Part shown: positions 3,493-3,523 of the stretch, piece after piece
Layout: every line of letters begins with the position of its first letter
Position numbering within the stretch: position 1 is the stretch's first letter
Assembly: GCF_054482525.1 (NCBI RefSeq)
Contig: NZ_CM137006.1
DNA: 64,000 bases
Reading direction: 5' to 3' (one strand)
The notes under the pieces: generated by a model
The model's database searches: none
What the model saw: the letters and a program-made list of their open reading frames with translations, nothing else
Told to the model about the DNA's origin: nothing
Translations under genes and position numbers: made by a program

Positions 3493-3523
3493 TTTGTAAA
3501 CCGTCCGGCACTCAATCGCCAAA

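Follow-up and report, generated by a model that had tools for sequence, protein, structure and literature searches.

The setA-less sgrS–leuD junction of a PCN033-like Escherichia coli is probably an old deletion allele

The locus and its surroundings

The stretch of DNA analysed here (the window, 64,000 nucleotides) is near-identical to the E. coli PCN033 chromosome (NZ_CP006632.1) and runs in the reverse orientation relative to K-12 numbering. Two SNPs separate it from the PCN033 RefSeq record in the first 10 kb, with about nine more and a 1-bp indel in an A-run elsewhere; the differences include positions 2241, 5963, 18853 and 34359, and the A-run differs near 63600, upstream of espX1. The source of the window is thus a very close relative of PCN033 or another version of its assembly.

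The window opens with leuA' (1–382), followed by leuB, leuC and leuD. The last of these, which closes leuABCD, occupies 2887–3492 on the plus strand in the list of open reading frames and is annotated as leuD in the PCN033 record. Its product ends in FMR before the stop codon, as in the outgroups considered below; the K-12 protein ends in FMN. Sliding mismatch counts and p-distance matrices mark out the leuD 3' flank (3201–3486, plus strand) as a stretch of raised divergence from the K-12 allele. A 40-bp filler delimited by blastn breakpoints (3487–3526) then leads to the small RNA SgrS, which is encoded on the minus strand (3526–3752). On the far side of SgrS is its activator gene sgrR (3820–5478, plus strand), divergently transcribed from sgrS, annotated as such and matched by PF12793 (SgrR_N, E = 1.7e-43) and by the solute-binding domain PF00496. 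Between sgrR and the thiB TPP riboswitch (6518–6617), after which thiBPQ follow, lies an island of 1.04 kb (5479–6517).

The island carries espY2 (5708–6277, minus strand), an open reading frame for a 189-residue type III secretion system (T3SS) effector-like protein that corresponds to ECs_0073 in O157:H7 Sakai and has no Pfam match. K-12 lacks the island, and only 1,034 of 5,426 E. coli genomes have it in full. Two further T3SS effector-like genes are present: espY1 between djlA and rluA (22731–23507, minus strand) and the start of espX1 (63629–64000, plus strand). The window also holds a chromosomal ccdA/ccdB toxin–antitoxin pair between folA and apaH (31604–32154, minus strand), with both reading frames intact, an IS1397 transposase of the IS3 family inserted between caiF and caiE (47859–49207), and yaaU (35341–36735), an annotated pseudogene with an internal stop.

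The assignment of SgrS was made with Rfam model RF00534, which matched 3752–3526 on the minus strand over its full length (model positions 1–232) and scored 227.6 bits, the gathering cutoff being 37. In pairwise alignments the RNA is of the CFT073/O157 allele type: it shares 88.3% identity with K-12 SgrS and agrees with that of O157 Sakai at 225 of 227 positions. Its 3' part (3527–3640, minus strand) comprises the C-terminal codons of sgrT, a spacer, the pairing core and the terminator. The 22-nucleotide core that pairs with ptsG, AUGUGUGACUGAGUAUUGGUGU, is identical in the window and K-12 alleles. The intrinsic terminator with its U-tract (3521–3555, minus strand) was located by a terminator scan and by RNA folding. 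It consists of an 8-bp GC-rich stem, GCCAGCAG/CTGCTGGC, with a 7-nucleotide loop at 3555–3533, followed by TTTTTTCTTTTT; the U-tract after the hairpin can also be written UUUUUUCUUUUU. The predicted fold has a free energy of −20.9 kcal/mol (z = −5.1).

Within SgrS, sgrT (3600–3731, minus strand; 43 residues) is annotated in PCN033 and matches PF15894 (E = 2.4e-13), with an intact ATG and an AGGAGG Shine–Dalgarno sequence. The C-terminus of SgrT reads EELMQWEGSHSDY here and EGLMQWDDRNSES in K-12. The covariance score, the divergent sgrR, the pairing core with its Rho-independent terminator and the SgrT reading frame together mark this as an SgrS RNA. Judged by sequence, SgrR, SgrS (promoter-proximal region, pairing core and terminator) and SgrT are intact.

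A difference from K-12 was noted in the Shine–Dalgarno region of sgrT (3732–3745, minus strand), which reads AAGGAGGUG here and AAGGGGGUG in K-12; the window therefore carries an allele without the K-12-specific stem that sequesters the ribosome-binding site. According to Horler & Vanderpool (2009; PMC2760817), that stem limits translation of sgrT in K-12.

The leuD–sgrS junction

In K-12 MG1655, sgrS (77367–77593) is followed by setA (77621–78799; 1,179 bp) and then by the convergent leuD (78848–79453). A sequence-only reading of the window had given this gene order, with which the MG1655 annotation agrees, and had placed the sgrS terminator about 30 bp from the leuD stop codon. The measurement stands: the final base of leuD is 3492, about 30 bp from the end of the U-tract and about 40 bp from the base of the SgrS hairpin, and the interval that the reading had singled out (3493–3523) falls inside the filler. 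The alignment with K-12 that it had proposed places the breaks in homology at window positions 3486 and 3527 (blastn), between which there are 40 bp here and 1,261 bp in K-12. The 1,261 bp replaced in this way comprise the setA–leuD spacer, setA itself and the sgrS–setA spacer.

A K-12-type bicistronic operon would continue past the sgrS terminator straight into a setA reading frame on that strand, and there is none at that position in the window. Searches of the whole 64-kb window with K-12 SetA and setA (tblastn and blastn) gave chance matches only, with best E-values of 1.2 and 0.76. Taken with the Rfam and Pfam matches, these searches bear out the earlier proposal that the locus has sgrR, sgrS and sgrT without the efflux pump. 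The absence of setA next to sgrS in the window is confirmed as genuine.

The same reading had named setA lying elsewhere in the genome as what would overturn it. We therefore constructed a chimeric query from window positions 1–5400 with K-12 setA placed on the opposite strand, which detects setA at about 85% nucleotide identity or above. It returned exactly one place in the PCN033 chromosome, PCN033 being ranked first, so that at this level of identity there is no setA elsewhere in that chromosome.

We also looked for traces of a deletion event at 3440–3640, a check suggested by the sequence-only reading. The junction has no deletion scar, that is, no flanking direct repeats and no remnants of IS, REP or other mobile elements. 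The repeat search of this region found no direct repeats, only the terminator stem and an 8-nucleotide inverted repeat. When the filler was compared by eye with the spacers of K-12, Salmonella, Citrobacter, Enterobacter and Pluralibacter, only the 20 bp or so next to the U-tract looked homologous. The endpoints of the deletion are approximate because the 40 bp have no convincing alignment to any setA-positive spacer.

The inverted repeat is perfect, AATCGCCA/TGGCGATT, with arms at 3514–3521 and 3557–3564 that bracket the SgrS terminator hairpin and its U-tract. It appears as an extended stem when the plus strand is folded, and such a stem would form in readthrough or leu-sense transcripts. The K-12 arrangement lacks the repeat, and in E. 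albertii one arm has a mismatch.

Frequency of the arrangement in E. coli

A probe spanning the junction was matched in 5,399 of 5,426 complete E. coli genomes. The match is contiguous, as in the window, in 2,159 of the 5,426 (about 40%) and falls into two pieces in the remainder. Genomes with setA number 3,241 of 5,426, and in 3,228 of these carriers the identity of the gene reaches 99% or more. O157:H7 Sakai, one O2:H1 strain and avian-pathogenic (APEC) strains are among those with the setA-less form. An assembly artefact was considered and rejected, the identical contiguous junction being found in 2,159 complete genomes.

The distribution was then set against that of chuA, which is present in phylogroups B2, D, E, F and G and absent from A, B1 and C. 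It served as a proxy for the deep phylogroup split and was the only marker by which phylogroups were assigned. A combined setA and chuA query found 5,478 places in 5,374 genomes, no genome having more than two. The 3,241 genomes with setA include at most 103 that have both genes; 2,133 genomes have chuA only and 52 have neither. Thus chuA is present in 2,133 of the 2,185 setA-less genomes (97.6%). By this proxy the setA polymorphism follows the main phylogenetic divide of E. coli, and the absence of setA is a major phylogroup-structured allele, not a strain-specific one.

The junction in other enterobacteria

To place the two arrangements we scanned one genome per GTDB species with an SgrS core pattern and located SetA, LeuD, SgrR and ThiB around each hit by tblastn. 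The 47 loci obtained include four that are either chance hits outside the enterobacteria (L008, L011 and L043) or have too little flank; the scan holds no E. fergusonii, E. marmotae or E. ruysiae and no E. coli type strain, so the genus is only partly sampled.

Outside Escherichia, setA directly follows sgrS at every enterobacterial locus in which the site is covered (over 30 loci, nine or more genera), and leuD is convergent wherever the locus reaches it. Many Citrobacter are among them, as are Salmonella enterica subspp. arizonae and diarizonae, Klebsiella, Raoultella, Enterobacter, Pluralibacter, Siccibacter and Superficieibacter. Since the outgroup order is uniformly sgrS–setA, setA-positive is the ancestral state and the setA-less one arose by deletion. 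K-12 setA is 77–80% identical at the nucleotide level to its Citrobacter and Salmonella counterparts, and sgrR diverges from the same taxa by 21–24%. With divergence so similar to that of sgrR, K-12 setA looks like a resident ortholog and not a recent import from those genera.

Within the genus, setA is also missing from E. albertii, E. whittamii, Escherichia sp. E1V33 and the atypical 'E. coli' SCPM-O-B-8794. When these loci were aligned with the window, five lineages of at least four species (PCN033 and the four just named) were found to share the filler TTTGTA--CCG-CCG(GC)ACTCAATCG-C, after which comes the A-run of the SgrS terminator, and in all of them leuD ends in TTTATGCGTTAG/A. A shared junction with no alternative forms argues for a single mutational origin, and for a deletion that would predate, or would have spread across, the divergence of these Escherichia species. 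Descent and spread by recombination cannot be separated for this junction, as recombination moves these alleles between lineages.

Two haplotypes around the indel

The divergence between the window and K-12 is concentrated at the indel. In the control segments, the 5' part of leuD and the 5' part of sgrS through sgrR, it is 1.3–2.6% (1.3% for the leuD part). It rises to 4.2% at 3201–3320, to 10.8% at 3321–3486, the last 166 nucleotides of leuD, and to 23.7% in the 114-nucleotide 3' part of SgrS. The same 3' part differs by only 0.9–4.4% among the setA-less Escherichia species, the value for E. coli against E. albertii being 2.7%. The K-12 type is 21–24% from the setA-less alleles and 17–26% from Salmonella and Citrobacter. 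The K-12-type SgrS 3' motif GUAAAAUCACCCGCCAGCAG is shared with Enterobacter, Pluralibacter and Salmonella, and the window-type motif GUUAAUCGCC.CGCCAGCAG with Citrobacter. Because flanks that differ by 10.8% and 23.7% stand against a background of 1.3–2.6%, the deletion is taken to be old, and the setA-positive and setA-less forms are ancient haplotypes.

Escherichia sp. MOD1-EC7003, which is not E. coli, has a K-12-type sgrS 3' end and setA (positions 1–700 of its locus). The 5' part of its setA is 98.9% identical to that of K-12, and 4 kb of flank are 93.7% identical. With the block so much closer to K-12 than its flank, it would therefore have moved between lineages recently, which suggests a recent inter-species transfer of exactly the sgrS 3' end and setA.

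A separate observation concerns the 3' end of sgrR (5076–5400), next to the espY2 island, which is 8–18% diverged from K-12 against a background of about 2–3%. It is a second indel-linked patch of old divergence at the same locus.

Origin of the setA-less arrangement

We consider the setA-less sgrS–leuD junction to be a genuine old deletion allele and not an event in this strain, with a probability of nearly 0.9. The ancestral enterobacterial order is sgrR, divergent sgrS(sgrT)–setA and convergent leuD. A single deletion of about 1.22 kb within the Escherichia lineage would have taken setA, its leader and most of the setA–leuD spacer, so that a 40-bp filler now separates the leuD stop codon from the SgrS U-tract. 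The resulting allele is found today in E. albertii, in E. whittamii, in two or more other Escherichia lineages and in the chuA-positive phylogroups of E. coli, including the PCN033-like strain, O157:H7 Sakai and APEC strains, with K-12 and the chuA-negative phylogroups carrying the alternative, setA-positive haplotype.

Several simpler histories fare badly beside these data. A simple comparison with K-12, taken by itself, would suggest that setA was deleted recently, in this strain or clone only, from a K-12-like ancestral state. Such a loss is scarcely credible: the same junction is present in 2,159 complete genomes, which span many serotypes and hosts, the same filler recurs in four other Escherichia lineages, and recent loss would have left flanks like those of K-12, which are instead 10–24% away. 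We rejected it on these three grounds. Nor is it much more plausible that enterobacteria lacked setA to begin with and that the gene was inserted after sgrS in the K-12 lineage by horizontal transfer. The very low diversity of setA within E. coli is what such an insertion would predict, but the gene is found at the same site and facing the same way in Citrobacter, Salmonella arizonae and diarizonae, Klebsiella, Raoultella, Enterobacter, Pluralibacter, Siccibacter and Superficieibacter, and K-12 setA is about as diverged from those genera as sgrR is. The outgroup loci rule the insertion out unless each genus gained setA independently at the same site. That setA moved elsewhere in the genome, or that the gap is an artefact of assembly, has a negligible probability, and nothing speaks in favour of either. 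The chimeric query has its single place in PCN033, the counts of setA-positive and contiguous-junction genomes are complementary, and thousands of genomes finished independently have the identical junction; both readings were rejected.

A further history refines the old deletion, and neither contradicts nor replaces it. The setA-less form might be the original state of E. coli, and the K-12-type block of about 1.65 kb, made up of the sgrS 3' end, setA and the leuD 3' end, might have been regained by homologous recombination, K-12 then being the derived form; the donor would be a diverged setA-positive Escherichia lineage and the recipient the ancestor of the chuA-negative phylogroups. We put this at slightly below even odds. 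It accords with the near-complete confinement of setA to chuA-negative genomes, A, B1 and C forming a derived clade, and with the uniformity of setA among its carriers. Divergence rises sharply only 100–300 bp either side of the indel, like a recombination patch, and the setA-less SgrS 3' parts of E. coli and E. albertii are 2.7% apart, each being 22–24% from K-12. The block shared by K-12 and MOD1-EC7003, 98.9% identical between flanks about 6% apart, points to recent inter-lineage transfer of this very segment. Against this, the phylogroups are only proxied by chuA, and long-term retention of both alleles, sorted among lineages, predicts the same pattern. More tentative still is the idea that the textbook sgrS–setA operon is secondary within E. 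coli, a block of pre-genus age that was reintroduced and recently exchanged with another Escherichia species. If it were true, SetA would play no part in how most of the genus copes with sugar-phosphate stress, most extraintestinal and Shiga-toxin-producing pathogens included, and niche-specific selection on sugar efflux might maintain both haplotypes.

Two papers (PMC4509938, PMC4021124), both of which cite Sun and Vanderpool (2011), describe K-12 setA as expressed from the sgrS promoter by readthrough of the terminator, in a few percent of transcripts under stress, and SetA as an aid to recovery from glucose-phosphate stress. The co-transcription of setA with sgrS that the sequence-only reading had stated for K-12 is supported by PMC4509938. 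In the PCN033-like strain the SgrR-induced response to glucose-phosphate stress would depend only on SgrT and on the base-pairing of SgrS. Transcripts that pass the sgrS terminator, which give setA mRNA in K-12, would here run antisense into the 3' end of leuD. Transcription leaving leuD would run antisense into sgrS, because there is no canonical terminator after leuD on its strand, just as there is none in K-12. A consensus scan for an intrinsic terminator at that position found none in either arrangement, so no difference between them can be claimed.

The K-12 results on SetA and on sgrS terminator readthrough are not transferable to about 40% of E. coli, among them O157:H7, APEC strains and the PCN033-like strain, or to other Escherichia species, since these lack setA. 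The SgrS/SgrT allele type is linked to the presence or absence of setA, and the locus offers a clean, small example of two ancient haplotypes segregating along the deep phylogroup split.

Comparison with known systems

The K-12 sgrR/sgrS–sgrT–setA locus was reportedly described by Vanderpool and Gottesman in 2004 and by Sun and Vanderpool in 2011. The locus in the window resembles it in the divergent sgrR, the sgrT reading frame, the identical 22-nucleotide core, the hairpin and U-tract of the terminator and the site between thiB and leuD. It differs in the missing setA (40 bp against 1,261 bp), in the 23.7% divergence of the SgrS 3' part and the different C-terminus of SgrT, in an AGGAGG Shine–Dalgarno sequence where K-12 sgrT has a GGGGG stem, and in the additional espY2 island between sgrR and thiB. 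Morita et al. (2015; PMC4509938) also deal with the K-12 locus.

A second chimeric query found three places in PCN033, the locus itself, setB and setC. SetB shares 52% identity with SetA, and SetC 47%. What is missing is therefore SetA specifically and not the whole family of SET pumps; of the three members SetA, SetB and SetC, PCN033 keeps the last two. The SET sugar-efflux family was reportedly described by Liu and co-workers in 1999. SetB and SetC are not known to be regulated by SgrR.

The SgrS allele of the window is that of the CFT073/O157 type. Horler & Vanderpool (2009; PMC2760817) state that SgrS of this type is about 88% identical to that of K-12, and the legend to their Figure 2, in which setA is drawn genome by genome, assigns it the colour pink. 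The identities of the window SgrS, 88.3% to K-12 and 225 of 227 positions to Sakai, match their CFT073/O157 values exactly. The gene order leuD, sgrS, sgrR, espY2, thiB, without setA, is that of O157 Sakai. Unlike Sakai, in which the ATG of sgrT is changed to ATT, the window has an intact start codon, as in the CFT073 type, and this mutation is one of the two differences between the SgrS sequences. Since the RefSeq annotations of Sakai and PCN033 are both setA-less, the arrangement was already a known and routinely annotated variant. The junction shared across species and the linkage of the flank haplotype to setA are small additions to it, not new biology.
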